From: an uncultured virus (IMG/VR IMGVR_UViG_3300035498_000413)
Lineage: Duplodnaviria > Heunggongvirae > Uroviricota > Caudoviricetes
Length of the DNA: 64,000 nucleotides
IMG/VR virus record: IMGVR_UViG_3300035498_000413
Span: 1-64,000 of that record
Reading direction: 5' to 3' (one strand)
Part shown: in pieces, positions 7,746-63,529 of the stretch
Position numbering within the stretch: the stretch's first letter is position 1
Layout: each line of letters starts with the position of its first letter
Notes under the pieces: generated by a model
The model's input: only the letters and a program-made list of their open reading frames with translations
What the model was told of the DNA's origin: nothing
The model's database searches: none
Position numbers and translations under genes: made by a program

Positions 7746-7758
7746 AGGAGGTAACGTA

Positions 7759-7989: not shown

Positions 7990-8016
7990 TATTAAAATAT
8001 TAAAGGAGATTTAAAA

Positions 8017-8757: not shown

Positions 8758-8772
8758 TAAGGAGGTAATACA

Positions 8773-17360: not shown

Positions 17361-17921
17361 TCACTTAATTACATTTGCCTGCTCAGCAATTTTCAGCGCG
17401 GAAGCAAGAGGTGTAACTCCTTCATTTTCAATAGGAATAATGCCGGATACATCAGAATTAGATAAAAAGAGGAAATCTTCTTCATCTGCGGAAAACCTGC
17501 GAATAATCTCCTTCACATCAGGATTATTTTCTCTATTAAGCTGTCTAAGAAGTCTAGTTTTATCAGAGCAATTAATTTTATAAATGCTAAGCTTGACATT
17601 AGGATTCTTACTTAGATTATAGATTCCATAAGGATTAAAAACTCCGATATTGATTTTATCTTCGTCGAGTTCTTCAATGCTAGTACCATAGTTCCAGTTA
17701 TTAAATCTAGTCCATTCTAGCATTTCGCCAGAAGAAATAGCAGTTTGAAATTGCTCGTTAGTTAGATAAAAATAATTCTCGCCCTCTTTTTCTCCTTCTC
17801 GGATAGGCCGAGTAGTATAGCTAATAATTTTATGAAAGCTATTAGACAGCTTGGCGAGTTCATTCAAGATTGCATCCTTCCCAGAACCCGCTTTCCCGCA
17901 AATCGCAATTACTTTAATCAT
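17361..17921 (-). CDS. gmk: Guanylate kinase-like nucleoside monophosphate kinase
   Basis: GKAGSGKD P-loop, SYTTRPIREGE, YYF and YGT motifs. Confidence 0.88.
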   Translation of the reverse strand: MIKVIAICGKAGSGKDAILNELAKLSNSFHKIISYTTRPIREGEKEGENYFYLTNEQFQTAISSGEMLEWTRFNNWNYGTSIEELDEDKINIGVFNPYGIYNLSKNPNVKLSIYKINCSDKTRLLRQLNRENNPDVKEIIRRFSADEEDFLFLSNSDVSGIIPIENEGVTPLASALKIAEQANVIK

Positions 17922-27579: not shown

Positions 27580-27633
27580 TCCTGTTTCTCCTTTCAAAAC
27601 ACCACAATTTATTTTAAAAAACTCTTAAATAAA

Positions 27634-38054: not shown

Positions 38055-39034
38055 TAACTACCGCCTTTATTTCCATTGAATCCAAAATCTTGAGTTCTAT
38101 AGAAATCAATCCAATAGACTTCTCGTTCATTCAATTTCGTTCTAGGTACTTCTTCTAGTATTTCAAAAGTAAAATTATGAACGCCATATTCCTTCATGCC
38201 CTTATATAGTTTATTCTAAGTAGACTCATGAGATAAAGCAGACTTGATATGTTGCCGCCAGCGTTCTCGTATATCCACACTTTGACCTATATAAGCTTTA
38301 TCGGTATCTAAGCAAGTAATTTTATAAATTCCACAAACCTTGCTGGTTCCTTCAAACAAATGTGAAGAAAGAACGTCAAAAGCAGGTTTATAATAAATAT
38401 CCCATAAAATTTTATCTATAGCTTCTTTGCGCGAGAAGGTAGATTGAAAGTTCCTCAAAGCTTGCACATCCGCAATTTCCGCATCAGAGATACATAAACG
38501 ATAATAATCTTTCTTACGAAGCATTTCTTCTTTTCTCTATTGCTCCTAGAGGTATGTATCCTACTTTGCCCGCAATTCCGCTAACTTAGATTCCTCTTCT
38601 TTTATAGAATTCTAAATAGAAGTTTGTTTTAATGAGATTTCATCTTTAAAACTCTCTAGCTTTGATCTTAATTCATCCCGGTAATCTTCATATTCTCTTT
38701 GTAATTTTTCTTTCTCAGCTTGACCTGCTATTCTTAGACGTTCAGCTTGGTCATTTACTAAATCCTTCTGTTGCTTTTCAGAGTGTATAATCTAATCAGA
38801 AATATATAGTAAAGAATCTTGTTTATCTTTTAATTCACTTTTTACTTTTGAAGTTTCTAAAGTTAAATTTTCTATTGTATTTTTTAAGTCATTTGCTGTC
38901 TATTCTAATTGTTTATTTTCTTCTGCCTACTTCGCATTGAATTTAACAGTTTTTTTAACATCCTACTTTAAACTATAGGCATAAACTGCTAAAAAACAAA
39001 ATGCAAAAGCAAGAATACAAGCTACAATATCCAT
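38054..39034 (-). CDS. Membrane-anchored coiled-coil protein with C-terminal GIY-YIG nuclease domain, 9 TAG=Gln
   Basis: N-terminal TM helix (IVACILAFAFCFLAVYAY), long coiled coil, CGIYKIT...AYIGQS...RWRQH...EREVYWI. Its TAA overlaps the next ATG. Confidence 0.75.
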
Positions 39035-46491: not shown

Positions 46492-47820
46492 TCATTTTCT
46501 TCTTAACAAGTATATAATTCCTAGGCTTGCGATTATACTCAAGACTATATAAACATAACTAGAGTCTCCAGTCTAAGGTACCTCCGCAAGTGGAATTGTT
46601 GTATCTAAAATAGTAGTTGTAGTAGATTTAATAGTATCTGTTTCTTTAGCTATTGATTCTTCGTTCTCTAAATCTGAGGTTTCTTCTTCGATAATAAATT
46701 CTTCGTTCTCTAAATCTGAGGTTTCTTCTTCGATAATAAATTCTTCTTTACGGGGAATTTCTTCCTCAATAATAGGCTCCTCTTCCGTGGGTAACGTTTC
46801 ATCAGGAAGAGGAGTCTAAATTGGCTTACTTACTATAGGTTTATTGTTAGAGCTAGAACTAGAAGGAATCTATGGAGTTTCTTCTTTTTCAGCTTTGATC
46901 CATTTACCATATAAAGTAGTATTGCTTATTAGTTTATAAGTAGAATCAGTTAAGATATTAGTTTGCTCTTCATCAGTAGACCATCCGGAAAATTTATAGG
47001 TTATTCCATCTATAACTTTATCTTCTGTAGAATAAAATTGTCTCGTAGATTCATCATAGCCTATGGTTATTTCTTTTCCTTCTTCTGATTTAGTATAATA
47101 AACTATATCTCCACTATAAGGAAGAGTATCTTCTGGATTTAAATCTCCATCTAATAAAATATATTGTAATGTAATACTATTATAGTTCTTAATAGCATCC
47201 ATATTAGCTATAATATTTCCATCAATATGCCATGGATTTGGGTCAGATGAACTTTCTGCTTTCTTTAAAGTATACCATTCTATATCATAAAACACAGGAT
47301 TTCCATCCTCGTCATACTCTTTTAGCAAATCTTTATCTACATATTCACCATTAAGCGTTATAATGGTTTTTGTCTCTAAAGATTTCTAAACAGCTTCTAT
47401 CGCTTCTTGCTTGGTTAATGGATTTTCTACCATGGTTTCTACTAATCCTTCAATTACTTGGCTAATTACCTAACTATTTTCTGATGAATTTCCTATAATA
47501 GCATAAGTACCATTAAAGGAAGATATATAATCTTTATTAGTAATAGTAGTAACTTCTCCATTCATAGTAATTTCAGTTTCGCTTTCTATCCAATTATTCC
47601 AAGCTTCTTCATCTATAGTAATCTAACTTTCAGAATCACTTAAAGCACTTGTAAAACTAGATATTGGTCTATTATTAACTCCATCAGCGGCTGAGTCTAA
47701 AATCTAACCATTAAGATTTACATACCAATTAATAGTTTCTGTTTCGGACTCAGCCGCTAATGCTATTGGCGTACAAAATAATAAAATACCTAAAAAAATA
47801 GGGACAAAACGTTTTGCCAT
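46492..47820 (-). CDS. Sortase-anchored surface protein: signal peptide, InlB B-repeat-like domain, VP(Q)TG, TM helix, RRK tail; TAG-recoded
   Basis: MAKRFVPIFLGILLFCTPIALA signal peptide; YKFSGWS...TTLYGKW repeat; acidic linker; VP(TAG)TGDSSYVYIVLSIIASLGIIYLLRRK-stop. Seven TAGs. Confidence 0.82.
46657..46746. repeat. 42-bp coding tandem duplication (EEFIIEEETSDLEN twice)
   Basis: Two identical 42-nt units starting at 46657 and 46699. Confidence 0.9.
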
Positions 47821-47846
47821 ATAACTCATCTCCTTTAATTTTGAAG

Positions 47847-50912: not shown

Positions 50913-51454
50913 GCTTCTTTGCACTCCTTTATAATTTCATCTAATTCAATAGGTCTACAGTCATGTGCCTCCATATCTGCATGATAAATCATCCCTTTAT
51001 TCCAATCGGAGAATCTATTCGGAGTATGAGTATGACCACAAATATTCAAAATTCTAGTTTTAAAGGATTTCTTATAATCATCTATATTGGAAACAAGAGT
51101 AGGAAAATGGCTGAATAGAATCATAGGTTTAGATTTATACATTAGGTAACTATGAGAAATATAAGATACATTGGAACAAGTTTCATACATTTCTTGCCGT
51201 TTAATAGTATCATGGTTTCCTACAATAATATGCAATTTACCGTTCATACTTTCAATTAGGTTTTTATTACCTTCAATGTCGGTACTAAGACACAAATCAC
51301 CTAGCACATAAACAGTATCCTCCGGCCGCACTAACTCATTGTGCCGCCGCACGATTTCTTGATTCATTTCTTCTACTGATTCAAATCCTCTTGCTTCCCA
51401 GATAAAACTTTTATCATGGTTAAAATGCCAATCAGAAGTAACCCAAATACTCAA
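50885..51454 (-). CDS. Calcineurin-like metallophosphoesterase
   Basis: SDWHFNH, LGD, GNHD, SHFP and GHTH motifs. Confidence 0.88.
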   Translation of the reverse strand: MSIWVTSDWHFNHDKSFIWEARGFESVEEMNQEIVRRHNELVRPEDTVYVLGDLCLSTDIEGNKNLIESMNGKLHIIVGNHDTIKRQEMYETCSNVSYISHSYLMYKSKPMILFSHFPTLVSNIDDYKKSFKTRILNICGHTHTPNRFSDWNKGMIYHADMEAHDCRPIELDEIIKECKEAWNPEFIRI

Positions 51455-51954
51455 TTCTCAAACCTCTCAATCAATACAGATCTAAAACCATAACCAATCA
51501 ATTCAGGAACAGTAGGATAAGAAAAATTATCAAACATAGATTCAATAGCGGAATCGGGTACGTGCGCGAAACCAGATCGTTCTGCATTACGCTGGACTGC
51601 ACTTTCATAGCTAGTAAGCATTACCGCGACCCGCAGCATGATATTTCCTTCAATCTTAATACGAGAAAGCAGTTTGTGGCGAGAAGCATGACTTACATGA
51701 GTCGCATCGACAAAGATATACTTTACACCTTCCTTAATAGAAGAATTAATTCTATCAATAAAGTTATTAAATACTTCTTCTTCTCTGGAGAAATAATTCT
51801 CCGTATCTTCACCAATAAGCTCTTTACGGAATTCATCTCGAGAAATTACTACCGCAGTATCTCCATCTCTTCTATGAAGCTCCGCTTGCTTGTTAGCCCA
51901 TGTAGACTTGCCAGAAGCAGGAATTCCGCACATCATAATAATCTCATAAGTCAT
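51451..51954 (-). CDS. Polynucleotide kinase-like P-loop kinase (AAA_33)
   Basis: CGIPASGKST, ISRD..R, VDATH and RN..R motifs. Confidence 0.85.
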   Translation of the reverse strand: MTYEIIMMCGIPASGKSTWANKQAELHRRDGDTAVVISRDEFRKELIGEDTENYFSREEEVFNNFIDRINSSIKEGVKYIFVDATHVSHASRHKLLSRIKIEGNIMLRVAVMLTSYESAVQRNAERSGFAHVPDSAIESMFDNFSYPTVPELIGYGFRSVLIERFEN

Positions 51955-52210
51955 AAATAGATTCCTCTCTTTCAACTTCTAAAATAGATGCGGCAGCTTC
52001 TTCTTTAAATTCTCCCGCTTCAAAATTCTTCTTAAACTCTAAGAGTTCTTTGCTATTTTTAATTTCTACGTGATTACACGCTGCCTTGCAATTAGGACAA
52101 TATAATTTCTTTCTATGGAATTTCTCCCGAAAGCTACCTCGATTTCTATACACCGGTAAGCTGCGGTTCCCGCAATTTAAACAATATAAATCATGTACAC
52201 ACATTTTCAT
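51944..52210 (-). CDS. Zn-ribbon protein
   Basis: CLNCG...H.KKLYCPNC. Confidence 0.7.
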   Translation of the reverse strand: MKMCVHDLYCLNCGNRSLPVYRNRGSFREKFHRKKLYCPNCKAACNHVEIKNSKELLEFKKNFEAGEFKEEAAASILEVEREESIYDL

Positions 52211-52218
52211 CCTTTTGT

Positions 52219-52857
52219 TTAACCTCCTACTACGCGAGATTCAAAAGTATCAAGGTTAAACAAGACAGCTTTTCCAGTATACGCACTCGCAATATCAATA
52301 TCAATTTTATGGCCGTTGCAATACCACATAGGGCCGAGATTTTCTAACTTCTTACCGATATATCCTTCCATTTCTTGAACTGGAGTATGTCCATGTACAA
52401 TAATGTCATAGCCAATCGGCTCTTCTAAGAAATTATGTCTATCCCAAAGAACTTCTTCTGGATCTTCACTCTCACAGCCAGAATGATTTAATAAAATCAT
52501 ATGTCCAGTTTCGCTAAAATGCTCAACACTAAGAGGAAGCTCTTCAAGTTTTTTAATCCAAGACTCATCGGCGCCTTCTTTCTGCCATTCCGCATAAGTG
52601 ATACTCCCGCCGTTCCATTGGAGTAAAGGAAGTTCGCAATCATTTCTCATTGCATCTTCTAACATTTGTTCGTGGTTGCCTTTAACATAAATCCATTGAG
52701 GATTATTATAAATAGCTTTAATCAACTTCCAACCATCAAGACCTCTATCTGCGGCGTCCCCAAGAAAACAAACTTTATCTTCGGGGTTAAGAAGTTCACA
52801 AATCTTCAAATAAATATCATATCGGCCATGGAGATCTGATACTGCATAAACACTCAT
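52219..52857 (-). CDS. Ser/Thr phosphatase-like metallophosphoesterase
   Basis: SDLHG, GDAADRG, GNHE and HGHTP motifs. Confidence 0.9.
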   Translation of the reverse strand: MSVYAVSDLHGRYDIYLKICELLNPEDKVCFLGDAADRGLDGWKLIKAIYNNPQWIYVKGNHEQMLEDAMRNDCELPLLQWNGGSITYAEWQKEGADESWIKKLEELPLSVEHFSETGHMILLNHSGCESEDPEEVLWDRHNFLEEPIGYDIIVHGHTPVQEMEGYIGKKLENLGPMWYCNGHKIDIDIASAYTGKAVLFNLDTFESRVVGG

Positions 52858-52874
52858 TTTATCAATCCTTTCTA

Positions 52875-53459
52875 TTATTCAAATAACTCCTTTAATACTC
52901 TAGGCGAGTAAGTTCTAGTTTCAAGATTGCTGTTATATTTATCAATCAGATTAGCTACGTTAATAGCTCCAGCTTTTTCAAGCGTTGTAATAAGAGTAAA
53001 TTTGTCTTTAATTTCTCTTCGCTTTTCTCTGACTTCTTTCAGTTGTTTCATCAAACAAATAGCTCGTAAGCCTACCATCTCTTCAAACTCGATTTTATGA
53101 AGGATATCTTCTTGCATCTTGTCATATTCACTTAGCTTCATAGTATAATAAGCCTTTAAAGACTTAAGGTTTTTAGTGCTCTTAGAAAAAGCGTTTGCTG
53201 CATCAAGCAAGTTATCAAACTTAGCTTCAATATCTGCAACTTCTTCTTCTGTTTGAGGAAGGCTTGAATCGTAAGGAATAATCTGCGCTTCTTCAAAAGA
53301 AGATTCTCCTTTATTCAGCCGAATTTCTTTCTCTCTTTCTGCATAATTAGCATTACTAAACTTAGCAGCAGACTCAATACTAGCAGCGAATACTAATGCT
53401 CCTTTGCTGTCTTGGGCGTAGTAAGTCTTAGAAGAAGGAAAATAAATTACATATTTCAT
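52875..53459 (-). CDS. Hypothetical coiled-coil protein
   Basis: QEDILHKIE...REKRREIKD. Confidence 0.65.
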   Translation of the reverse strand: MKYVIYFPSSKTYYAQDSKGALVFAASIESAAKFSNANYAEREKEIRLNKGESSFEEAQIIPYDSSLPQTEEEVADIEAKFDNLLDAANAFSKSTKNLKSLKAYYTMKLSEYDKMQEDILHKIEFEEMVGLRAICLMKQLKEVREKRREIKDKFTLITTLEKAGAINVANLIDKYNSNLETRTYSPRVLKELFE

Positions 53460-53473
53460 AAGTACCAATCCTT

Positions 53474-53842
53474 TCAATCAATTCTTTCAGTCCAACCATT
53501 TGCCTTGATGATAGCCCTCATCTTCTGTGCACCAACTGGGTTCATGCTATGGATTTTGATAGGTGGAATAATTCAATCATTGACATGAGCATTATATTCG
53601 AGCCAGTTAAGAAACTCAATATAATCTCCTCCATCGGCCGGAGAACCATAATCACCAGCATCATGGTCAATATCAATTACCTCTACATTAAATTTCTTAA
53701 TGTAGCAGAGTTGATGATTTTCATCGTAGTACTTCTCGAAGCGAGCCATTCCTTTGAAGCGCATCTTAGCTTCATTAACAGTCTTAATCCAGCGATAACC
53801 TTTAGGAGCAGGCCGCACATCATCAATCCACATCTTCATCAT
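53474..53842 (-). CDS. Cyclic-phosphate-processing receiver-domain protein with an internal in-frame TGA (53573-53575)
   Basis: WIDDVRPAP and DIDHDAG before the TGA; the family motif IHSMNPVG follows in the same frame. Confidence 0.7.
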
Positions 53843-53938
53843 TTTCAATCAATCCTTTCCTTAACTTCCTATAGATATTATAATATAAATTTTATTAAAA
53901 ATAAATAAAAGCTCTCTAGCCAAAGAGAGCTTTTAATC

Positions 53939-54166
53939 TTATTTATTAGATTTATTACTAAAATATATATTAAAACTTTCAAGAACAAGACAAATAACAG
54001 GCCCAATAGCTAGATCCCAAGTGCAAGTAATCCCCATTATAATTGCAATAATATCACACGCAAGTACGATACTCCAGCCAACAACAAAAAACAATGGAGT
54101 ATTAAGTTTCTCATAGAACAAACAATAAATAATTACTGCAATAACAACAATAGTAGCAAAAATCAT
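53939..54166 (-). CDS. Small multi-TM membrane protein
   Basis: Three hydrophobic segments. Confidence 0.6.
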   Translation of the reverse strand: MIFATIVVIAVIIYCLFYEKLNTPLFFVVGWSIVLACDIIAIIMGITCTWDLAIGPVICLVLESFNIYFSNKSNK

Positions 54167-54654
54167 TAGTTTCCTCCAATAACAAACTTAGTAGTATTCA
54201 AAAACTCGATAATACATTTCTGAAAATCAGAAGGCACAGTAAAGTAAATCCATCCCTCTACAGTCTCTCCCGATTTACATTCAGTCCCTATAGGAAACGC
54301 ATCTTCCTCATTCCCGAACACCCAGTTTTCACACATTATATCATCTGCATAGCAAGAGAAGTCAAGACTGCCAATGTTAATAGAAGATTCACTTGTATTA
54401 TCAAATACGAAGTAGATTCTTTCTACTTCATATCCTTCTGCTGGGGCAGCATACTGTGAGTAAGTTGTAAACTCTTCTGCGGCCGTAGCTGTAAGGTTAT
54501 AAGACCTAGTGGTTGATGTTTCATTTAAAGCGAAGTTTGCGGGCGCCGAATCAGAATTTTCTCCGCTTACGAATAACATTACTACAGCAATTAATACTAT
54601 AGCCCATACAATAATAATTAAAATATAATCTGTATTTATATTTTTAATTATCAT
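54166..54654 (-). CDS. Membrane-anchored DUF4352-like Ig-fold protein
   Basis: N-terminal TM helix; DFSCYAD...GETVEGWIYFTVP. Confidence 0.65.
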   Translation of the reverse strand: MIIKNINTDYILIIIVWAIVLIAVVMLFVSGENSDSAPANFALNETSTTRSYNLTATAAEEFTTYSQYAAPAEGYEVERIYFVFDNTSESSINIGSLDFSCYADDIMCENWVFGNEEDAFPIGTECKSGETVEGWIYFTVPSDFQKCIIEFLNTTKFVIGGN

Positions 54655-55936
54655 TCACCTCCAACTCTTGTGCTTCTTCCATATCGGGTGCTTTGGCGCT
54701 ATCCTTAATTAAACCTTCCAGAATCTTAAATTCTACGGTCTTAGACTTATAAGCTTCAAACCGAGGTCGGTTTACAATTCTAACTACTACGCCTTCTTTG
54801 ATATGAGTCTTGCCGATAGGATCAGTCAAATCTTCAAAATATGCGTTAATGCGGTTCTGCAGGTCTTCGGCGGTAGTAAACTCGAAATCATCCACTACAG
54901 GAACTCGATTAAAGTTATGAATATTACACCATTCAGTAATTTCATCAGGCGTCCATTCCTTGCGTCCATTATCAGAAGTAATACGGTAAATCCACATCGC
55001 AGAGTGACCGGGAGTACAACCATAGTTAAAAGTGGTGGTATCCCCATATTGCTTTACGAAATTTTTATCATTGATTTTTGCATTATCACAAATAGGCATA
55101 ATAGTTTGCGTTTCTTGAGGCCCATAATATCCAACTACTTCATAGTATACCTCAAGTGAGTCCTGCATAAAAGGCGCCAATGCTTCATGGTGAGGAAATC
55201 TAAAAGTATCAGTTCCATAGTACCCAGTAGAATTTTCATGAATAACAGTACGTCTAGTACCAAGCACATAAGCAGGCTTAGTCTTTTTCTTCATATGAAA
55301 TAATCTGCGGAACCAATTATTAGGAAGCTCACCATAAGTCATCATAGAACGCTGGCTAGTGCCGTGCATCTTCAAAGTAATATTAATCTTATCACCAGGC
55401 TTAAAAGCATCCATATTATAAGCTAACTGTTGAGTGTCAGAGTGCATAGAGAACTCAGGATAAATGATACCTTCAGCTTTGCGGCCCTTATAAGAAGTTT
55501 TCTTAGCCCCATGATAAACATCAGTTTGCTTAGGAATATACTTTTTACAGAATCGCTTTTCTTTCCCATCCACAAAGATAGAGGTTACTTCTTGTCCATC
55601 ATTCCAATTCTGATAGCCAAATACACTATAAATTTTAGAGATAGGAATAACAATACCTTCCGAGCGGTTTCCTCTCAGCTTAATTGCTCTAATATGACCA
55701 TTATTCTCGATATATCCACCTTGGATACTACCATCCATATTCTTGCGGAAAAGCTTGAAGGCGTCTCCAAACCATCGCTCAATCTGTCCATCCTGCGGAA
55801 GATAAAGTACCTTATCACCATCAACAGAATCAGGACCTACGATAACGCCCTCGCCGTAACATTCAGCGAGATACAAACGGTCACTATTCTCGGCCTTCCG
55901 CACATTCTTTAAAGTAGTCACGTATGCGCAATACAT
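54644..55936 (-). CDS. RNA ligase (Rnl2/DRB0094-like) with N-terminal OB domain
   Basis: LRGNRSEG, motif I TLKMHGTS, YYEVVG, EGVVVR and YKSK. Confidence 0.8.
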   Translation of the reverse strand: MYCAYVTTLKNVRKAENSDRLYLAECYGEGVIVGPDSVDGDKVLYLPQDGQIERWFGDAFKLFRKNMDGSIQGGYIENNGHIRAIKLRGNRSEGIVIPISKIYSVFGYQNWNDGQEVTSIFVDGKEKRFCKKYIPKQTDVYHGAKKTSYKGRKAEGIIYPEFSMHSDTQQLAYNMDAFKPGDKINITLKMHGTSQRSMMTYGELPNNWFRRLFHMKKKTKPAYVLGTRRTVIHENSTGYYGTDTFRFPHHEALAPFMQDSLEVYYEVVGYYGPQETQTIMPICDNAKINDKNFVKQYGDTTTFNYGCTPGHSAMWIYRITSDNGRKEWTPDEITEWCNIHNFNRVPVVDDFEFTTAEDLQNRINAYFEDLTDPIGKTHIKEGVVVRIVNRPRFEAYKSKTVEFKILEGLIKDSAKAPDMEEAQELEVNDN

Positions 55937-55937
55937 A

Positions 55938-56441
55938 TTACATTACCCTCCAATCAAAATCGGGATGCTGGTTAATAAAAGGCATCACAACTTCTCTTAT
56001 TGCTCCAAGAGCAGTAACTCTATCAATAAAAACAATAGAAAGAAAAGGAACTTGTTCAGTCTCTCCTGCCGCGAGACATTTAACGCTAAATTCATTATCA
56101 GAAAAACAAATGATAAAAACAGCTTCATCTCTCGTCAGCTCAATCTTATCTCCTTCATACTGCATAGTGTATCGCCACAGCAGCCTCCGCAGAATTTCTC
56201 GATAGCTTTGCTGAACCATCATAGCTTCATTAGTACAGTAATTTCCTACTGCATATAGACTATCCTCAAATGTAGAGTTGCAATCTCCTTCTTCGGCCAC
56301 TTCACCATCAATATCAATGAAGTAAAATAGATCGTCTGACTGTCTATCAAACTCATTTTTGAAGTAAATACTCTCCAGATGATTTGCTTCTTCATTGCTC
56401 AGATAACGCTTCCGCCCATTGACGTAGATATAATTATCCAT
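55938..56441 (-). CDS. Hypothetical protein
   Basis: 167-aa ORF in the operon. Confidence 0.6.
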   Translation of the reverse strand: MDNYIYVNGRKRYLSNEEANHLESIYFKNEFDRQSDDLFYFIDIDGEVAEEGDCNSTFEDSLYAVGNYCTNEAMMVQQSYREILRRLLWRYTMQYEGDKIELTRDEAVFIICFSDNEFSVKCLAAGETEQVPFLSIVFIDRVTALGAIREVVMPFINQHPDFDWRVM

Positions 56442-57213
56442 TAGCTTCCTCCTTAACGCACTTCCGCACCATATAGTTTACGACTTCTCGATAATCTTTT
56501 CTCAAGTTCTGGTTGCTAGGTTCCACAGGAAAATAACTTTTAAAAAGAGTAAAGGTAGGCATAATCATATCTGCCATAGCTTTAGCTTCTTCCAAATTCC
56601 ATTTTCCTTCTTTTGCTTCTTTAACCTGGGTCCAAGGAATTTCCTTCAAAGAAGCCTCATAGTTCTTAGTAGCCATGTAATTCAGCAGAAGATATTCAAG
56701 TCGGAACAGATGGCTGAGACACTTGGAATAATCTTCTCTTCCATCACGGATTCTCTTATGCTCATTCTTGGCCATACCTCGAATATTGTTGGCTAAAGCA
56801 AGAGGATGAAGTCTTACAAGATCTTCGCGTGCGGCGGTGAGTAGGTCCCATTCATCCTTATACTTAGGATTCACGATTTTATAATCCGTGAACAAAGTTT
56901 CAAGAATCGAGATACTCGGCTTCGTAAGACTCTGATACCAAAGTCTAATGTCCTTAACCACGATATGCCACGTATCATTGGTGGTAGTTTCATAAGTAAC
57001 CATCTCACCATTGATAAGCTGGTCAAGAGTAGGAGTTACAAGAAGAACAGTATCAACATCGGACTGCTCAGTATCAAGCCCATAGTTGCCAGAGCCGTAG
57101 TAGAACAGCCCTACGATGTTATTCTCTTTTACGCAGCGGTCCGCGCACAGCGCATAAATTTCTTCCATGCGAGCCATAATCCATTCATCAGAGTGAAAAT
57201 TCTTCATAACCAT
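56434..57213 (-). CDS. Pol-beta-superfamily nucleotidyltransferase (RlaP-like)
   Basis: YGSGNYGLDTEQSDVD motif and ILETLFT. Confidence 0.78.
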   Translation of the reverse strand: MVMKNFHSDEWIMARMEEIYALCADRCVKENNIVGLFYYGSGNYGLDTEQSDVDTVLLVTPTLDQLINGEMVTYETTTNDTWHIVVKDIRLWYQSLTKPSISILETLFTDYKIVNPKYKDEWDLLTAAREDLVRLHPLALANNIRGMAKNEHKRIRDGREDYSKCLSHLFRLEYLLLNYMATKNYEASLKEIPWTQVKEAKEGKWNLEEAKAMADMIMPTFTLFKSYFPVEPSNQNLRKDYREVVNYMVRKCVKEEANG

Positions 57214-57223
57214 CAATCCTTTC

Positions 57224-57823
57224 TCAAACAATAATAATTGGTTCTACTTCTTGATTCGTGCTTAAAATACAAAAAGGACGTTGTACTCCCTCACATAGCT
57301 CTTCTGCTGCTTCAAGAGCGTAAGTAATATGTTCAACTGGAGTTAGCTTATCTTTAAAATGCTTTGTCGTAGTAATTAGACTTGCTAGTGCTGCATTTTC
57401 ACCACAACCAACCGCCGCAAATCCAGAATTCGATCGCAAAACAGAATAATCACTTTGAATTTCAAATAGCTTATCTTCTACTCCAAGGAGGAAGTTTCCA
57501 CCTCGTTCTTCGCTAGGCTTATCAATAATATTTTCTTGAAATAAAGTTATTAGATTAGGAATAAAAGTTTTAACCATATATTTATGGTCAATATCTTTTC
57601 CTTTATACCAATCAATTTCAGGAAAAAGTTTTTCACTATACTTTAACAAATCCATATGGCGAAACGACCCTGTGCTTCCCATAATGACATTTTTAAATGT
57701 ATCATGTCTAAATACTTTTGGCAAAGCTTGTACGTCTTTAGTATAACCATTACTACCTAAGGCATCTCCGCCTATCCAAACCTGATTAGTTTCTTTATCT
57801 GTAAATCCAACAATGCAAGTCAT
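57224..57823 (-). CDS. Ntn-hydrolase, HslV/proteasome beta-like peptidase
   Basis: MTCIVG with N-terminal Thr nucleophile; GGD, K33-like PKVF and AVGCG. Confidence 0.75.
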   Translation of the reverse strand: MTCIVGFTDKETNQVWIGGDALGSNGYTKDVQALPKVFRHDTFKNVIMGSTGSFRHMDLLKYSEKLFPEIDWYKGKDIDHKYMVKTFIPNLITLFQENIIDKPSEERGGNFLLGVEDKLFEIQSDYSVLRSNSGFAAVGCGENAALASLITTTKHFKDKLTPVEHITYALEAAEELCEGVQRPFCILSTNQEVEPIIIV

Positions 57824-57883
57824 TTCTTCTTTCTCCTTTAACTTTCTATAGATATAATACTATATTTTTTCTATAAAATAAAA

Positions 57884-58219
57884 TCACTTATCTTTCACGA
57901 TAAATATCTTACCCTGTTGTTCTAATACTTCATATCTATTTGAAAAATCAATCATAGAAACTGAATCATCTATCATCACTTGATAATGAGTCTCATATAC
58001 TGGCTCACTAGTTAAGTACCCAATAGCTTGAATACCAAAAAAACCAAAAATTGCAGAGCATAAAAGTAATACGTATCCTACACCTCCAAGGGAAGTTACT
58101 GCTATAGTTCCAACCGCACATATCATAAGTATAATAATTATAAATCCTATGAATGTTGCTACAGTCCAATTACGTTCAGCGATAATACTAAATTCATTTA
58201 GAATAGTTACTCCTTGCAT
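57884..58219 (-). CDS. Two-TM membrane protein
   Basis: Two hydrophobic helices; YQVMIDDSVS. Confidence 0.65.
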   Translation of the reverse strand: MQGVTILNEFSIIAERNWTVATFIGFIIIILMICAVGTIAVTSLGGVGYVLLLCSAIFGFFGIQAIGYLTSEPVYETHYQVMIDDSVSMIDFSNRYEVLEQQGKIFIVKDK

Positions 58220-58686
58220 CTATTCTCAATCCTTTCTGCAATCTCAACGATCTTATCACCACTAGTTTGAATTTCTTCTTTAGCTTGTTCATGCAGCCTC
58301 TCGATATCACGTTGTACAGATTTATAAATAGCAATCATTGCCTCATTATTCTTAGCTTGAGTTTCAAGTGCTTTTTTATGTTTAACTAATCTTCTAGTAG
58401 CTAAAAAATCTTCAAAGCTCATTCTAACATAATGACTCTCGAAGTTATCTTCTCTATATCTCCACTGAAAATCACGAGGAAGTTCCCATCTATTTGGATT
58501 TACTTCATACAAATCTTTAAATATTTCATATGTGATAGTTGGTCCATCATATAAACATTCATAATAACGTTTTTTTATTTTTCTTTTTTCTATAAATTTT
58601 ACTTTATCGTTTGAGCAAGCATTAGCGAAAAGAATAATACCAATTATGCCTGCTGAAATTAAAATTACTAAAATTATTCCTAACAT
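58207..58686 (-). CDS. Membrane-anchored hypothetical protein
   Basis: N-terminal TM helix and coiled-coil tail. Confidence 0.65.
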   Translation of the reverse strand: MLGIILVILISAGIIGIILFANACSNDKVKFIEKRKIKKRYYECLYDGPTITYEIFKDLYEVNPNRWELPRDFQWRYREDNFESHYVRMSFEDFLATRRLVKHKKALETQAKNNEAMIAIYKSVQRDIERLHEQAKEEIQTSGDKIVEIAERIENRCKE

Positions 58687-58756
58687 ATTTATTATTTCCT
58701 TTTTATTTTATTATAACATTTTTATTATAAAAAAATAAAAGGGAGCCGTAGCTCCC

Positions 58757-59056
58757 TTAATGACAATATCTATCAATCAAAACCTTAGCTTCCTCTGGGT
58801 CAGTTAGACTAAGCAGCTTAGTATCACTCAGCTCGTCCTTATTAAAAACAACGTTCATAAAAGCGCACGTCCAATCTCCGAGTTCAATCCCCTCAAGATC
58901 TACCAGCCGCGCAAGCATTTCGCAAGCGGGGTCGATGATATCATTGAATGGAGAGTAATAAAGATCGGCAGGATAAAGAACTTCACTAATCTTGTCAAGA
59001 TAATCGGTATACTCAATAATCTTGTGTGCGTAATCGAGATAAATCTTAGCGTCCAT
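58757..59056 (-). CDS. Hypothetical protein
   Basis: RBS GGAGG; followed by hairpin GGGAGC/GCTCCC. Confidence 0.6.
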   Translation of the reverse strand: MDAKIYLDYAHKIIEYTDYLDKISEVLYPADLYYSPFNDIIDPACEMLARLVDLEGIELGDWTCAFMNVVFNKDELSDTKLLSLTDPEEAKVLIDRYCH

Positions 59057-59071
59057 ACTTAAATATCCTCC

Positions 59072-60544
59072 TTATCGAATCATGTCATACTTCTTTAAAG
59101 TTTCAAACATCAGTTCTTTACCAGTCTTGCCGGTAAGAATAGAATCCAAAATGACCGGGGAGTAACCACTTACAAAAGAAACACCGTTCTTAGGAGCCTC
59201 AGGAATAAGGTTATGTCTAGCATTGACATTCCAATATACAAGATTAGGCATCTTGTATCCATATTCTTCCCATTTGTTTCTAATAGTCTCCATACCAGAG
59301 TAAAGGCCCTCTAAGCTTCTGTAGTTCGTCATACTATCAAATTCCATATCAGAGATAATGATAATATTCTCAGGAAGTTCAGACTGCGGGAGCTGATGCT
59401 TTAAGGCGGTATTGAGCAGTAGATTAAATACAGCTTCAATATTAGTGTTATCGCAGAGCATATTATCATAGATATTAATTACCTGACTACAGAAATCTTG
59501 TCCAGTAATCTCTACTAGTTCAGGTCGGCTAGAAAAAGAAATATAATGGTTATAGAAAGGACTCCCAGGATTACACTTTCCAGCGCAATACAAACCTAAC
59601 GAGATTGCAACTTCGATCGGGCGTCCGTACATACTACCAGAAGTATCTACCACTGCAATACCATTGAATTTTGCGCCCTTAAAATAGTCGGTAAGATTTC
59701 CCCAATACTTGTTATATATTGCTCTATCTTCTAAGTCAGTATAGTGCATATCATAATAGCTCTTACCCATAACCTTATGCACTACATCAGCAGGATACAG
59801 AGTTCCAGCATGGACTTTAGTATTCTTAGACTGAATAAATTCCTGATATCGCTCAGAAGTTTCCTTATTCTTCAAAAAAGCTTTAGAATACTTCAAACCA
59901 GCCTTAGAAGGAACAGCCGAGAAATCAATCTCATCCCATCTCTTATCACTCATAAGACGCTCAAGAACGTTAGAATAATTCCGCAATTCTGACAGAGTCT
60001 TACGATACAGCTTGGGAGTCATATGAAGATATTCTCGAATCTTCTTAGCCTTTCTTCGAGTTTCTTGACTAGAAGTATTTTCACTAGGAAGCCATTTAGC
60101 AAGAAGGCTAATAGAATCTTCCTTAAGAGCGTTCTTAATATCCATCGCAAGCTGTTCTGCGATAAATTGCATAACCTCAGCTTCAACCGGAGTATCAAAC
60201 AGCTCGAATAAATCGTCCCATCTACCAAACTCAGGAATATATCCAAGATTCCGCAGAACTGCATCAGGGTCATAATTAGCCAACCACTTCAAACAAACTC
60301 GGAAAAAGGCTCTTTCGCCCTGGCCTCCGCGCGCATCACGCAAGTAAAACAAGCACTTCAAAGCAAAAGTAGGATTCTCTCGATAAGCAGAAGCAAAAAG
60401 TGCAATCGTATCTTCTTTACTACGCTCTCTATATGCGCCACCAAGGCTAAAGAGATCGAACACTCGATCTGCAGTAGTAGAATAACTCACGCCGCCATTT
60501 TCAGTATAAGTCTTAGATGCTTCAATCTTTAATTCATTTAACAT
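59072..60544 (-). CDS. DUF2828 / TROVE-vWA (Ro60-like) protein
   Basis: TENG, RDARGGQGER, GRWDDL, AKWLPSE, VVDTSGSM (MIDAS), ISDMEFD, YWNV and SGYSP. Confidence 0.85.
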   Translation of the reverse strand: MLNELKIEASKTYTENGGVSYSTTADRVFDLFSLGGAYRERSKEDTIALFASAYRENPTFALKCLFYLRDARGGQGERAFFRVCLKWLANYDPDAVLRNLGYIPEFGRWDDLFELFDTPVEAEVMQFIAEQLAMDIKNALKEDSISLLAKWLPSENTSSQETRRKAKKIREYLHMTPKLYRKTLSELRNYSNVLERLMSDKRWDEIDFSAVPSKAGLKYSKAFLKNKETSERYQEFIQSKNTKVHAGTLYPADVVHKVMGKSYYDMHYTDLEDRAIYNKYWGNLTDYFKGAKFNGIAVVDTSGSMYGRPIEVAISLGLYCAGKCNPGSPFYNHYISFSSRPELVEITGQDFCSQVINIYDNMLCDNTNIEAVFNLLLNTALKHQLPQSELPENIIIISDMEFDSMTNYRSLEGLYSGMETIRNKWEEYGYKMPNLVYWNVNARHNLIPEAPKNGVSFVSGYSPVILDSILTGKTGKELMFETLKKYDMIR

Positions 60545-60635
60545 ATAAAATCTCCTTTTTGCTGACTTTTCTTTTTTCAAGAAAAGTATCTCTCTTAACT
60601 TTCTATATACATTATACAATTTTTATAATAAAATT

Positions 60636-61166
60636 TCAAGTAATTTCTTTTCTAAAATAAGTATAAACGCATCGACATGAAGGATGATAAGGAGGAATTT
60701 CTTTTATTTCAGAGACAGGGACTGGAGGTCCGTCAAACGTATCGGCGCAATAACCGCAACAATCCTCGGCATGAAGAATTTCGCCATACATATCAGGAAT
60801 ATCCTTAAATAAGTTATAAGCAATTCTATTCACAATAGTATAACACTCATTATCAAGAATCAAAAGACAATGATATAGAGCTAGATTGCGGTCGCCGCAG
60901 TTCAGCCACTCCCGCACTCGAGATTCAAAGGTTTCCATATCATCATAGGTTACTGAAAATACAGCTATGTCGCCGGGGACTTCAATCTCGTATTCTGTAG
61001 TAATATATTTTATACACATAGCTAATACTTTTTCAAAAGAATCGTAGTATTCGTCGAACAATTCTTCACCTTTTCCTTCTGTTTTAAAATATCGAAGGAC
61101 TGCTTTAGCTATTGTGTTCTCTTGTTTTAAGAGATATTTCTCTATTTGTTCAATTAATTCTTTCAT
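60636..61166 (-). CDS. Protein with a Mu gpF-like C-terminal Cys/His motif
   Basis: DCCGYC...IPPYHPSCRC. Confidence 0.6.
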   Translation of the reverse strand: MKELIEQIEKYLLKQENTIAKAVLRYFKTEGKGEELFDEYYDSFEKVLAMCIKYITTEYEIEVPGDIAVFSVTYDDMETFESRVREWLNCGDRNLALYHCLLILDNECYTIVNRIAYNLFKDIPDMYGEILHAEDCCGYCADTFDGPPVPVSEIKEIPPYHPSCRCVYTYFRKEIT

Positions 61167-61172
61167 TACTTT

Positions 61173-61763
61173 TCACGAACTGCTAGATGTTTGGCTACAA
61201 TCTGTAGTACAGGTATTTCCGCTTTTACACTTGGAGCTTGTTGTATTACCTGATTTACATAAGTTACAGCCTTTACAGCTATCACAAGTATTGCAACCAG
61301 TATTGCAAACAGTACACTGATTTTTTTCATAAGTTAAATCATTAGCTTTATTGGCTAAATCTTCAAAATAAGAGCCATAAATATAAGTTTTTCCTGCTGT
61401 TGCTCTTTTGGAGCTTCCCACTAATGCAGCATAATTATTAAACCAAGATGCTTTAACTTCTTTATCAGTTTGTGTTGTAATTCCGCTGGTACTCTTGCCC
61501 CCAATACCTTTAGATCTTAAAGCTTTAACATATGCAGGAAGCCTATTCCAATCGGTAAGTTTAATTAATTCACTTCCAGCAGTTACCCCGCCATTCCATG
61601 CAAACTTATTAGAGCAATCGATACTATAAACTTCTTGAACTTTACAATACGTTTGTGCATCATCACAGGTTGTACAATTACCATTGTCACAATTATTACA
61701 ACTATCATTACAAGTATTGCAGCCATCGCAGTCTTGACAGCTAACACAAGTTTCACAACTCAT
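61173..61763 (-). CDS. Cys-rich protein with CxxC repeat arrays at both ends; candidate rSAM substrate
   Basis: ATG at 61763 after AGGAG, overlapping the rSAM stop; 22 Cys in two terminal arrays. Confidence 0.75.
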   Translation of the reverse strand: MSCETCVSCQDCDGCNTCNDSCNNCDNGNCTTCDDAQTYCKVQEVYSIDCSNKFAWNGGVTAGSELIKLTDWNRLPAYVKALRSKGIGGKSTSGITTQTDKEVKASWFNNYAALVGSSKRATAGKTYIYGSYFEDLANKANDLTYEKNQCTVCNTGCNTCDSCKGCNLCKSGNTTSSKCKSGNTCTTDCSQTSSSS

Positions 61764-63408
61764 TTTTCTTCTCCTTTCTACAATAATTTTTATAATGACA
61801 TTCATTATCTAAATAATCTTTAAAAACTAAGTTATTTTCTTCTACTAAACATTTCATCATATTAACAGCGTGTTTAAACAAAATTTGGTTCCACCTACAA
61901 GCTACTTCTGGATTGATAAAGAAATCTTCATAAGTATCATAGTTAGAAGAAGGACAACCATTGGTCTGGCACACCTGCCGTAAGGGGCAAGTTTTGCAGA
62001 GTTCAGGCTTCTCACACTCATTTATTGCTTCTTTTGTATATTCATCTAACAAAGCTTCATGCTTTTTTCTATCTACGCCATTCCAAATATCACCGATAAA
62101 GAAGAAACTATTTCCATAAGAATCTTGCTCTTGACAAGCATAAATTCTACCATCATAAGAAATAGAAGCAGAAGTAGTACCAAGGCCGCATCTAAAAGGC
62201 TCGCGATGAATAGAAACATTATTAAATCTATTATGATAGAACTGTAAATCTCTATTTAATATATCTTCATAAGTTTTATCAATACGAGAGAAAGAAGTAA
62301 AAGGTTTATGACCCTCAGAAAACTGTAGATACATCAACGCAAAAATCTTCTCTACTTCTTCATCAAGTTTTTGAATATTTTCTTCTGACCAAGTTTCTCT
62401 ACCATTAGGCATTGTAAAGAAATTGCGGAAACCGTGCTCCATAGCGAAAACATACGAGTTAAAAGTGCCATCAACTGTAGCTTGGTCAATGGTTGCTCTC
62501 ATAGTGGTGTTTGGAAAATTCTGTAATAAATAGGAAATATTGGAAGCCGCCGCCTCATAACTACTTTGCCCATTCCGCATTGGACGATTTTTATCTTGAA
62601 CTTCTTTAGGACCATCGAAAGAAAGATGGGGATAGATATCATACTTCCGCATAAAATCAATTCTTTCCTTGTCTAGCAGCGTCCCATTAGTGGTCATTGT
62701 AAGAGTAATAGTATCTCCATATTTCTCTCTAATATGCTTAGTCAGCGGCACAATAATACTATCCCACATTATAGTAGGTTCACCGCCAAAGTAAGTAATA
62801 GAAGGATCTTGCTTAATTCCAGTTAATTCTTCCTTTTGTTTAACATTATTCATTAAAAAATCAACGCTTTGTTCTGCAATTTCGTAAGTCATATAGTGGT
62901 TACATTGCTTAACAAAGCAGTTATGAACAGCAAAACCATCTGCAAAATAAGTATGTTCACTAGTCTCAAAATTATAAACCTGCGTAGTTTCAAAAATTTC
63001 TTCGACAGATTCAATTATAGAACTATATAGCCCTATATCTCCAAATATGTAAGCCACATCGATCCCAGGCTTTAAATCTTTTACCTGGGTCCATTTATTT
63101 ACTCCAGTTAAGATAGGATGATTTCCTGTAAGATAAATTTTATGTTTATCCTTCGTAACAATTTTAAATAAAGTTCTAGCTTCTCTTACAAAAATATTAA
63201 GAACTTTAGTTGTTTTTACTCTATGGGGAGCTTCTTCTTCAAACCCCATAACTCTATCAGCGATTTCAATATCTTCAATATTTTTCGTGCTACCATCAGC
63301 CATTAAGATCTTAGTGCCGGCTGGTGCGCAATACTTGCATTCTAGGTTACACGCGTCAGTGAGGTTCAAACACACGCTACTAAAAAACGGGTAATGTTCT
63401 TTATACAT
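61753..63408 (-). CDS. Radical SAM/SPASM-domain enzyme with a mini-intein
   Basis: CNLECKY|C, YFGGEP, TTNG and SFDG; SPASM CGLG...IYAC...CKTCPLRQVC...GCP...AC. Confidence 0.92.
   Translation of the reverse strand: MYKEHYPFFSSVCLNLTDACNLECKYCAPAGTKILMADGSTKNIEDIEIADRVMGFEEEAPHRVKTTKVLNIFVREARTLFKIVTKDKHKIYLTGNHPILTGVNKWTQVKDLKPGIDVAYIFGDIGLYSSIIESVEEIFETTQVYNFETSEHTYFADGFAVHNCFVKQCNHYMTYEIAEQSVDFLMNNVKQKEELTGIKQDPSITYFGGEPTIMWDSIIVPLTKHIREKYGDTITLTMTTNGTLLDKERIDFMRKYDIYPHLSFDGPKEVQDKNRPMRNGQSSYEAAASNISYLLQNFPNTTMRATIDQATVDGTFNSYVFAMEHGFRNFFTMPNGRETWSEENIQKLDEEVEKIFALMYLQFSEGHKPFTSFSRIDKTYEDILNRDLQFYHNRFNNVSIHREPFRCGLGTTSASISYDGRIYACQEQDSYGNSFFFIGDIWNGVDRKKHEALLDEYTKEAINECEKPELCKTCPLRQVCQTNGCPSSNYDTYEDFFINPEVACRWNQILFKHAVNMMKCLVEENNLVFKDYLDNECHYKNYCRKEKKNEL
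62920..63330 (-). mobile_element. Mini-intein (137 aa, no endonuclease) inside the CxxxCxxC motif
   Basis: CAPAGTKILMADG...TGNHPI...VYNFET...FAVHN|C. Confidence 0.92.
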
Positions 63409-63427: not shown

Positions 63428-63450
63428 AAAGGGAGGTTTCCCTCCCTTTT
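63428..63450 (-). terminator. Intrinsic terminator after the tRNA cluster
   Basis: AAAGGGAGG-loop-CCTCCCTTT followed by a T-rich tract on the minus strand. Confidence 0.75.
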
Positions 63451-63454: not shown

Positions 63455-63529
63455 TGGCAGAGGCGCTTCAGAATCGAACCAAGACCCGAGGGGTTAGAGC
63501 CCTCTGTGCTACCATTACACTACACCTCC
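63455..63529 (-). tRNA. Amber suppressor tRNA (anticodon CUA), probably Gln-accepting
   Basis: GGAGGTG/CGCCTCT acceptor stem, G73-CCA, D arm GTGT-AATGGTA-GCAC, anticodon arm GAGGG-CT[CTA]AC-CCCTC, GGTTCGATTC T loop. Confidence 0.9.

Follow-up and report, generated by a model that had tools for sequence, protein, structure and literature searches.

The first 64,000 bases of the uncultured Caudoviricetes record IMGVR_UViG_3300035498_000413 (76,610 bases in all) encode a predicted radical S-adenosylmethionine (SAM) enzyme with a probable SPASM domain and, overlapping the enzyme's stop codon, a 196-amino-acid protein with a cysteine array at each end. We will refer to these 64,000 bases as the window and to the 196-amino-acid protein as the Cys-tailed protein. 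The explanation that fits best overall, and that we favor with modest confidence, is that these two genes form a protein-maturation module of a large gut-type phage that reads TAG as a sense codon. By analogy to known maturases, the enzyme probably crosslinks both cysteine arrays much as a ranthipeptide maturase would, with a protein-sized substrate that has no leader.

An earlier note on this DNA had proposed that the enzyme, the Cys-tailed protein, and the product of a third gene form one modification system. The three genes are on the minus strand, head to tail, at 60636-63408. The enzyme gene (61753..63408) encodes a precursor of 551 amino acids, with AGGAG 7 nucleotides ahead of its ATG. 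The open reading frame listed for the Cys-tailed gene is 61173..61805; we place the start at the ATG at 61763, seven bases behind AAGGAG, which gives a gene at 61173..61763 that encodes 196 amino acids. The enzyme's TGA (61755-61753) falls inside the first codons of this gene, so the overlap that the earlier note had seen is 11 nucleotides long. The third gene (60636..61166) encodes 176 amino acids.

The enzyme is directly upstream of a gene from the Cys-tailed family (overlapping it or within 10 nucleotides of it) in all 12 of the loci that we could assess, that is, those with a complete family gene or with its 5' part and upstream DNA. These are the window, L003, L004, L007, L008, L009, L010, L019, L020, L024, L025, and L095, which is the GenBank phage phAss-1. 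(L011 was left out, as it has a 3' fragment alone at the end of a contig.) The 12 loci represent nine lineages, with enzymes that are down to 30–33% identical, and the stop codon of the enzyme overlaps the start of its partner in most of these lineages. All of the other neighbors change across the nine lineages while the pair persists. Judging from this conserved gene order, the association between the enzyme and its partner is far beyond chance. Many related phages retain the pair, so the most likely activity of the enzyme is to staple its partner with sulfur-carbon bonds. The earlier note's idea that the enzyme is coupled to the Cys-rich protein thus gains from the conserved translational coupling in nine lineages and from the thioether-maturase-like scores of the enzyme (described below). 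Its expectation that all three genes would co-occur held for the pair (12/12 loci) and failed for the third gene, whose motif, among the 17 sequences scanned, we saw next to the pair in the window and L003 only.

We also examined more distant relatives of the enzyme. Among 74 viral loci with such relatives, the profile of the Cys-tailed family matched strongly in five loci at 43% identity or above (L021–L025) and weakly in L056. In L026–L030, whose enzymes are 32–37% identical to that of the window, the enzyme's stop codon overlaps the gene for a different partner, which has 495–602 amino acids and an N-terminal Cys array. This array contains 19–28 cysteines in L026–L028 and 18 cysteines in the 563–567-amino-acid partners from L029 and L030. 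The three of these partners that were scanned (L026, L029, and L030) have Ig-like repeats (phrog_10993 and phrog_36643). The contigs L026–L030 place the two genes in a tail-fiber module, with the enzyme gene flanked by a tail-collar-fiber gene and the partner gene. The L029 partner is encoded behind Baseplate_J and Mu-gp48 genes, and the L026 partner is encoded behind a tail-collar-fiber gene. Homologs of the 495–602-amino-acid partners in Faecalibacterium phages match them only from residue 64–148 on and are annotated as "Hoc-like head decoration." L058 and L056, from gut phage contigs, encode true TIGR04115 maturases (652 and 513 bits), with a 378-amino-acid protein with 66 cysteines beside the former (L058 2278-4724) and a 276-amino-acid protein with 41 cysteines beside the latter (L056 2178-4769). 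Many of L059–L091 (21–22% identity) look like the same TIGR04115 group.

Outside of viruses, we screened the best 80 loci from a set of 185,579 species genomes of bacteria and archaea and found no member of the Cys-tailed family (0/80). The closest of these loci are L096–L098 from Aedoeadaptatus and Peptoniphilus, with enzymes at 31–33% identity; in L096 and L098, a Cys-array protein of the kind seen in L026–L030 is encoded downstream of the enzyme and overlaps its gene, and L097 had no match in that screen. L096 and L097 are prophage-type relatives from cultured strains. Among the 77 remaining loci (24–36% identity), the screen found a SCIFF peptide beside the enzyme in 12, and these 12 are from Veillonella, Lachnospiraceae, and allied Bacillota. 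Loci at 24–28% identity carry the peptide GGCGECQTSCQSACKTSC upstream in Veillonella and Lachnospiraceae. Because the family is absent from these 80 loci and the nearest cellular relatives are SCIFF systems, the window's enzyme subfamily looks phage-specific.

Some copies of the pair look damaged: the L010 enzyme has an in-frame TGA (2594-2616), and in L020 the enzyme is truncated and the partner is frameshifted (4456-5595). Also, a small conserved protein (MK/YP..KYRF...VAVSTYAGK.VRGVAKCDP.DEF...GK.LAAARC) adjoins the pair in L007 (2725-3078), L008 (5648-5980), and L024 (2966-3412). It lies upstream or downstream of the pair depending on the lineage and has a weak Rv2632c-like Pfam match; we saw no copy of it beside the window's pair.

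Turning to the enzyme itself, the 551-amino-acid precursor matches the Pfam families Radical_SAM (PF04055; 54.3 bits, with a cut-off of 29.5) and Fer4_12 (27.7 bits, with a cut-off of 22), and an intein-free allele (see below) matches Radical_SAM at 56.0 bits. The enzyme also matches phrog_1802 (E = 2.7e-31). The cysteines of the CxxxCxxC motif (C20, C24, and C27) are invariant in five phage homologs, which along with the profile match places the enzyme in the radical SAM superfamily. The SPASM domain is described by a seven-cysteine pattern, Cx9-15Gx4C ... Cx2Cx5Cx3C ... C, and binds two auxiliary clusters. In the five phage homologs, the pattern Cx12Gx4C ... Cx2Cx5Cx4C ... C is invariant; the last gap is x4 where the reference has x3. 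The invariant residues (numbered as in L003) are C270, G283, C288, C328, C334, C337, C343, C348, and C367, so eight SPASM cysteines and the three cluster cysteines are invariant in this five-homolog alignment.

Among the curated families in NCBIfam, the intein-free allele scored highest against PapB (189 bits), nif11-type (153.8 bits), and ScfB-like (136.6 bits) maturases, followed by SCIFF (128.8 bits), QhpD (119.9 bits), and CcpM (119.4 bits). Lower down, the anaerobic sulfatase maturase reached 97 bits, RumMC, which is a sactipeptide maturase, reached 76 bits, and the cyclophane formers YhhB, FxsB, and XyeB reached 60–97 bits, all below their cut-offs. The enzyme does not belong to the PapB family (NF047865), whose cut-off is 340 bits, nor to the SCIFF maturases (TIGR03974; cut-off of 425 bits, and its match starts at profile position 97), nor to the maturases of CXXX-repeat targets (TIGR04115; 87.8 vs. 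350 bits), nor to the CrpC type (TIGR04463; 52.1 vs. 525 bits). By its ranking of families, with PapB, SCIFF, and QhpD as the best characterized matches, the enzyme is in the thioether-forming peptide-maturase clade.

[quoted passage not shown] Where the window's enzyme matches the RRE-bearing families, the alignment starts at enzyme residue 10 and leaves out the first 78–97 positions of the profile, so the enzyme lacks an RRE domain. We found no protease, exporter or transporter, leader peptide, or signal peptide among the operon's genes (open reading frame list, Pfam, and PHROG), nor a SCIFF peptide in the window's operon. With a candidate substrate of 196 amino acids that has a folded core, no RRE, and no protease or transporter family, the locus does not qualify as a ranthipeptide or sactipeptide gene cluster.

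The Cys-tailed protein has 22 cysteines, and their arrangement is much as the earlier note had described. We counted by eye (and confirmed the total) 12 cysteines in residues 3–50 (61614..61757, mostly as C-x-x-C), none in residues 51–149 (61317..61613), and 10 in residues 150–190 (61194..61316). The C-terminal array opens with QCxxCNxxC, which is found across the family. Both arrays lie within tails that AlphaFold2, run with 60 family sequences, predicted with low confidence (below 50 in pLDDT, the predicted local distance difference test, for residues 1–36 and 154–196). The Cys-free core was modeled as helical with good confidence (pLDDT of 77–94 per 10-residue block across residues 51–150), in line with the note's view that the partner is protein-sized. 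The loosely repeated units that the note had spotted in the core (LTDWNRL and KASWFNNY) coincide with (L)T..WN and (L)TA..FN, the two motifs of the core that the family conserves best. Within these motifs, W72-N73 and F108-N109 are invariant in a three-sequence alignment (A1). In the 60-sequence alignment, W72, C150, C153, C157, C160, and C163 are at least 90% conserved.

No family from Pfam, PHROG, or NCBIfam matched the Cys-tailed protein. There was also no match with tblastn against GenBank phages, to which the low-complexity filter may contribute. A word-based search found just three relatives, and a profile scan of the genome contigs with alignment A3 confirmed none. When we searched 1.84 billion representatives with a profile, 143 representative clusters matched with E ≤ 1e-3, and 58 of them had E ≤ 1e-10. 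Nearly all of the 143 have 140–260 amino acids. Judging by these profile matches, the Cys-tailed protein defines an unannotated family. To describe its cysteines, we used a set of 144 proteins: 142 of the 143 profile matches (P0003 and P0006–P0147) with the word-search relatives P0002 and P0003. All but one (143/144) contain cysteine, and the exception is a fragment of 117 amino acids. A crude motif located the core in 93 proteins. Of these, 71 have at least four cysteines on both sides of the core, 19 (mostly short fragments) on the C-terminal side only, one on the N-terminal side only, and two on neither side. Family-wide, the arrays contain 935 C-x-x-C gaps and 467 C-x-x-x-C gaps. In 713 of the 935 C-x-x-C units, the cysteine is followed by N, D, Q, or E; the position after that is mostly S, T, or G. 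The arrays are nearly free of aromatic residues (Y 2.0%, F 1.0%, W 0.3%).

The residue preference within the arrays bears on the chemistry. A passage in PMC13692751 gives C-X-X-Q/D as the acceptor motif for ranthionine bridges. N, D, Q, and E, which follow the cysteine in most of the C-x-x-C units, are the acceptor types reported for these bridges. In the mechanism that we propose, the precursor of the enzyme would splice out a 137-amino-acid intein, and the +1 cysteine (Cys164) would replace Cys27 as the third ligand of the [4Fe-4S] cluster that cleaves SAM. The mature enzyme would then act on the co-translated 196-amino-acid protein, with its helical core and its two disordered arrays of C-[N/D/Q/E]-[S/T/G] units. 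Because the enzyme lacks an RRE and the substrate lacks a leader, the folded core of the partner is probably the docking element for the enzyme. The enzyme would abstract a hydrogen from the side-chain carbon of an acceptor residue, and a bond would form to the sulfur of a neighboring cysteine. With many such thioether (ranthionine-type) bridges, the two floppy tails would become compact knots, resistant to proteases and to changes in redox state. The pair would be a compact means of making multiply stapled proteins: 412 amino acids (after splicing) plus 196 amino acids, with no RRE and no leader.

The intein is located on the third cysteine of the CxxxCxxC motif. The intein-free alleles in L003 and L004 encode an enzyme of 412 amino acids that reads CNLECKYCFVKQ at the intein site, and their exteins are 97.7–100% identical to those of the window, which instead reads CNLECKY-[C27...HN163]-C164FVKQ. 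Because the empty-site alleles have nearly identical exteins, we take the insert to be a mini-intein of 137 amino acids without an endonuclease domain (62920..63330). The N-extein (residues 1–26; 63331..63408), which bears C20 and C24, is identical at 26/26 positions to L003, and the C-extein (388 amino acids; 61756..62919), which contains the rest of the radical SAM barrel and the predicted SPASM domain, is 97.7% identical to L003. Hint-type intein domains from Pfam match residues 22–115 of the precursor, including Hom_end_hint (PF05203) at 34.0 bits, with a cut-off of 32.1. Reading by eye, we identified intein blocks A (CAPAGTKILMADG), B (TGNHP), and F/G (YFADGFAVHN|C). As expected of a class 1 intein, it has Cys1 (C27), TGNH, and HN163|C164, and exactly these 137 residues are absent from L003 and L004.

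We infer that the intein splices from the enzyme precursor. Cys1 of the intein completes CxxxCxxC in the precursor, and the +1 residue, C164, would complete the motif after splicing. Among the nine lineages, the intein is present only in that of the window, and we found no paralog of it in the genome: tblastn matched only 63330-62920. Since splicing would be cysteine-based and both cysteines (Cys27 before and Cys164 after) would be cluster ligands, the intein could gate the enzyme and make its maturation conditional on the redox state. As a natural instance of an intein on a cluster-ligand cysteine, this enzyme would make the conditional splicing of an iron-sulfur enzyme directly testable.

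We then considered where the matured protein might be found. In a profile-profile comparison with hhalign (alignment A2 vs. A5), the Cys-free core aligned to the C-terminal ~110 residues of FN3/Ig proteins over 100 columns (probability of 98.4%, E = 5.5e-15). The genes for these FN3/Ig proteins directly follow genes whose products match proteins annotated as tail endopeptidase, minor tail, or tail proteins. By this comparison, the core and the C-terminal domain of tail-module FN3/Ig proteins are homologous. The FN3-core tail proteins had no match among GenBank phages, a PDB sequence search with the tail-domain profile found nothing, and neither did PDB sequence searches with the tail-module neighbors in L005 and L006. 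In the window's genome, the Cys-tailed gene follows the tail-fiber genes.

The codon usage of the relatives suggests a time of expression. TAG aligns with Q of the orthologs within both the enzyme and the partner in L008 and L009. The L008 partner has five TAG codons, and the adjacent TROVE gene in L008 has none. In a tail-fiber gene of the window's genome, one TAG is opposite Q, one is opposite G, and one is opposite another TAG. The open reading frames with TAG in the window's genome are a plus-strand block at 2-9195, the fiber genes at 64065-68458 (-), and those at 46492-47829, 38054-39034, and 25837-27597 (-). Many in-frame TAG codons are thus in presumed late genes, and most of the replication genes have none. 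A tRNA with the anticodon CTA, an amber suppressor (63455..63529, minus strand; ARAGORN), provides context. On these alignments, TAG is a sense codon for Q in this phage group. Recoded stops are presented as marks of late genes in a portion of PMC10607447. Because the three genes in the window lack TAG, late expression can be inferred from the relatives only.

The partner also evolves differently from its neighbors. Between the window and L003, the Cys-tailed partners are 76.5% identical, with 1.01 synonymous substitutions per site (dS), 0.157 nonsynonymous substitutions per site (dN), and dN/dS of 0.16. The enzyme's C-extein, the 176-amino-acid gene, the TROVE gene, and orf99 are 97.7–99.0% identical, with dS of 0.16–0.25 and dN of 0.004–0.011; orf159 is 89.3% identical, with dS of 0.18 and dN of 0.053. 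Every aligned cysteine is kept between the two partners. The raised dS of the partner points to a diverged allele that was swapped in, as a cassette, and not to positive selection alone.

Because of the homology of the core, the synteny with tail-fiber genes, the sister systems in tail modules, the TAG codons in relatives, and this cassette behavior, the matured protein may well be a late component of the virion or the tail fiber, although we put this at a little under an even chance. More tentatively, we speculate that phages of anaerobes use RiPP-type radical chemistry on their own particles: a dozen or more thioethers on a tail-associated protein would make a hyper-stable and interchangeable surface module for host binding or gut survival, with the enzyme additionally gated by its intein. 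If so, virions could carry enzymatically installed crosslinks that are not disulfides. The known substrates of radical SAM thioether maturases are small secreted peptides and, since very recently, a single archaeal protein; a conserved, phage-specific version would extend this chemistry to virus biology.

Several observations count against this picture, either its chemistry or the virion location. The enzyme is below every curated cut-off in NCBIfam, and its SPASM match (PF13186; 17.8–18.7 bits for the precursor and the intein-free allele) is below the cut-off of 21.5 bits. In the 32 of 74 viral loci whose neighbors we inspected by eye, the distant group of phage radical SAM enzymes (of the L039–L054 type) has no Cys-rich neighbor. 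Foldseek with the model of the Cys-tailed protein gave no match in the PDB at E ≤ 0.001 and a best E of 0.35 in BFVD, and the best Z from a wide search with VIA-align was 5.5, a value that noise alone can reach for helical models. Cys arrays are absent from the tail-module relatives of the core, as are radical SAM genes near them, and in L019, L020, and phAss-1, the pair is beside topoisomerase genes, not tail genes. Within the window, the enzyme, the partner, and the 176-amino-acid gene have no TAG, and a terminator-like hairpin is directly upstream of the enzyme. Finally, the dense CxxC arrays could simply bind zinc or iron-sulfur clusters.

If they do, the arrays would be unmodified metal sites, akin to metallothioneins, zinc ribbons, or iron-sulfur proteins, while the enzyme acts elsewhere (on RNA, a cofactor, or another protein) and the two genes are adjacent because both products depend on iron-sulfur or redox supplies. 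Metals are classically bound by CxxC pairs, the surroundings with tRNA and RNA-repair genes could hint at nucleic-acid chemistry, and an enzyme under all of the curated maturase cut-offs might do something else. We nevertheless think that this is improbable. The top family matches are all maturases of Cys-containing peptides or proteins, with no RNA-modifying radical SAM enzyme among them; the pair stays together across nine lineages, with start/stop overlap in most of them, while other neighbors change; and the arrays are predicted to be disordered and have an N, D, Q, or E after the cysteine in 713 of 935 CxxC units, which a metal site does not need. Slightly less probable still is that the enzyme performs another radical chemistry on the arrays: bridges to the alpha carbon (sactionine), the conversion of cysteine to formylglycine as by anaerobic sulfatase maturases, or carbon-carbon links of the cyclophane type. 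Maturases for each of these are in the same list of sub-cut-off matches (97 bits for the sulfatase maturase, 76 for RumMC, 60–97 for YhhB, FxsB, and XyeB), but the ranthipeptide-type families PapB, SCIFF, and QhpD score clearly higher, SCIFF systems are the nearest cellular relatives among the best 80 bacterial loci, and the arrays hold almost no aromatic residues for cyclophanes.

Another alternative accepts the crosslinks and moves the product: it would be a soluble effector, intracellular or released, such as an anti-defense, superinfection-exclusion, bacteriocin-like, or metal/redox factor. The Cys-tailed protein is small, it is encoded behind tRNA genes and the hairpin and beside RNA-repair genes, and the pair is among replication genes in L019, L020, and phAss-1. 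The absence of TAG from the window's copies would suit an effector as well, and the rapid turnover of the partner also fits an arms race. We consider an effector unlikely, as we saw no gene for a protease, exporter, leader, or signal peptide in the operon, the core shares homology with a domain from tail modules, the sister systems lie inside tail-fiber modules, and both genes have in-frame TAG in L008 and L009. The earlier note had left open whether the product is a virion component or an effector; the core homology and the sister systems lend support to the first option, and we keep the second as a rival.

The third gene is the part of the earlier proposal that did not hold up. Its product ends in ...EDCCGYCADTFDGPPVPVSEIKEIPPYHPSCRCVYTYFRKEIT, and the motif CCGYC...PPYHPSCRC that the note had pointed to (C136, C137, C140 ... 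H161, C164, C166) is present in the translation. The only relatives that we found are 98% and 81% identical, and when 17 sequences (16 loci plus the genome of the window) were scanned for P.H..C[RK]C, just the window and L003 had this motif next to the pair. We therefore ruled out that the three genes are one conserved system, as the third gene does not co-occur beyond the closest relatives; going by this distribution, it is a lineage-specific neighbor outside the conserved module. Pfam's PF04233 did not match the 176-amino-acid protein even at E ≤ 10, and there was no other Pfam match. There is a weak match of residues 118–174 to phrog_4728 ("head morphogenesis," E = 5.1e-4), and in the protein atlas, 21 of its 30 matches carry PF04233 (score of 0.95). 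A word search found no longer relatives of its C-terminal part, tblastn found no match among GenBank phages at E ≤ 1, and a single-sequence AlphaFold model had a pLDDT of 41.2 and was unusable. It is probably a small MuF-like protein.

We compared the pair to characterized or previously defined systems. The best family for the enzyme is PapB, which acts on PapA (freyrasin). The match of 189 bits covers profile positions 3–322 of 330; both enzymes are radical SAM enzymes with a full SPASM domain, which in the phage enzyme is predicted from its cysteine pattern; and both substrates, the phage one being putative, have many cysteines and acidic or amide residues. PapB forms Cys-Asp links. The phage enzyme falls below the 340-bit cut-off, is phage-encoded and interrupted by an intein, has no accompanying protease or exporter, and has a 196-amino-acid partner with two arrays and a folded core instead of a leader-core peptide. 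The SCIFF maturases (of the CteB/Tte1186 type) are in the thioether-forming class and are the nearest cellular relatives that we found. In contrast to them, the phage enzyme lacks the N-terminal RRE part (the match, at 128.8 vs. 425 bits, starts at profile position 97), its putative substrate is encoded downstream of it, which is the opposite gene order, and this substrate is four times longer.

The idea of a protein-sized substrate has a recent precedent in Methanococcus voltae, where the SPASM radical SAM enzyme CrpC was shown to install ranthionine bridges on CrpA, a Cys-rich protein of 28.8 kDa with repeated C-X-X-Q/D (Dieter et al. 2026, PMC13692751). The concept is the same as the one proposed for the phage pair. 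However, an RRE is present in CrpC, and CrpA combines a leader-like region at its N terminus with a single C-terminal array of 17-residue repeats; the system is archaeal and non-viral, and the phage enzyme scores 52 vs. 525 bits against TIGR04463. A passage in PMC13692751 also names the quinohemoprotein amine dehydrogenase QHNDH as a precedent. In that system, QhpD (TIGR03906) is a radical SAM/SPASM enzyme that crosslinks cysteine to acidic residues in QhpC, a subunit that is retained in a larger assembly; the phage enzyme scores 119.9 vs. 453 bits and has no amine dehydrogenase context. The CXXX-repeat system (maturase TIGR04115, targets TIGR04114 and TIGR04117) is likewise a pairing of a radical SAM enzyme with a Cys-repeat protein, defined in silico, and has true members in phage contigs. 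One of these links to our family, as the L056 partner weakly matches the window family's profile (E = 9e-5). The phage enzyme differs in its score (87.8 vs. 350 bits), and its partner has mainly CxxC spacing and a bipartite architecture. The window's protein matches none of the target models, and TIGR04117 matches just 1 of 60 family members, at E = 0.05.

Our full-text literature searches turned up no description of a phage radical SAM enzyme that is paired with a Cys-rich protein of the virion or the phage. In PMC12801897, a "radical SAM maturase" from a cyanophage is listed as an antibiotic-synthesis gene, and its substrate is not named in the part of that paper that lists it. The phage phAss-1 (L095, GenBank OQ749652) encodes the pair, with the enzyme annotated as "hypothetical protein," and the word "radical" is absent from the full text of the phAss-1 genome paper. 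Its family member, of 174 amino acids (6147-6671), has three TAG codons and is absent from the public annotation, and a second radical SAM gene with ten TAG codons is annotated as hypothetical or split. The phage is classified in the "code 15 clade." Upstream of the pair, the phAss-1-like lineage has one or two additional radical SAM genes (L019 1672-2814 and 3089-3310; L095 3935-4966).

Finally, we describe the surroundings of the pair in the window. The region had no match to GenBank phages with megablast. The terminator-like hairpin (63428..63449, minus strand), with 9 pairs, of which 5 are G-C, and then a run of T, is between the amber-suppressor tRNA and the start of the enzyme gene, and it sets the gene cluster apart from this tRNA, a tRNA-Ser, and a tRNA-Thr. 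Upstream of the tRNAs are tail-fiber-like genes with in-frame TAG. On the other side, the region's best promoter-like site, TTGAAA-17-TATAAT (60611..60639, minus strand; 11 of 12 positions), is directly behind the 176-amino-acid gene and precedes a TROVE/DUF2828 gene; it is a consensus match only and would mark the start of the next unit.

Downstream of the cluster are RNA-repair and replication genes, many of which are interrupted by homing endonucleases. The RNA-repair-like cluster (51451-60544, minus strand) adjoins the tRNA genes and encodes the TROVE/DUF2828 (Ro-like) protein, a RlaP-type nucleotidyltransferase, an HslV-like peptidase, an RNA ligase, a polynucleotide kinase, and phosphatases. 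In the region at 12269-17305 and 17914-23110 (minus strand), the anaerobic ribonucleotide reductase NrdD is in three pieces, with GIY-YIG and HNH homing-endonuclease genes between them, and the DNA polymerase is in two pieces with an endonuclease between them. A DnaB-like helicase of 786 amino acids (30666-33026, minus strand) matches PHROGs for the large subunit of terminase in its middle (around residues 220–595), which may be another intein or an inserted domain.

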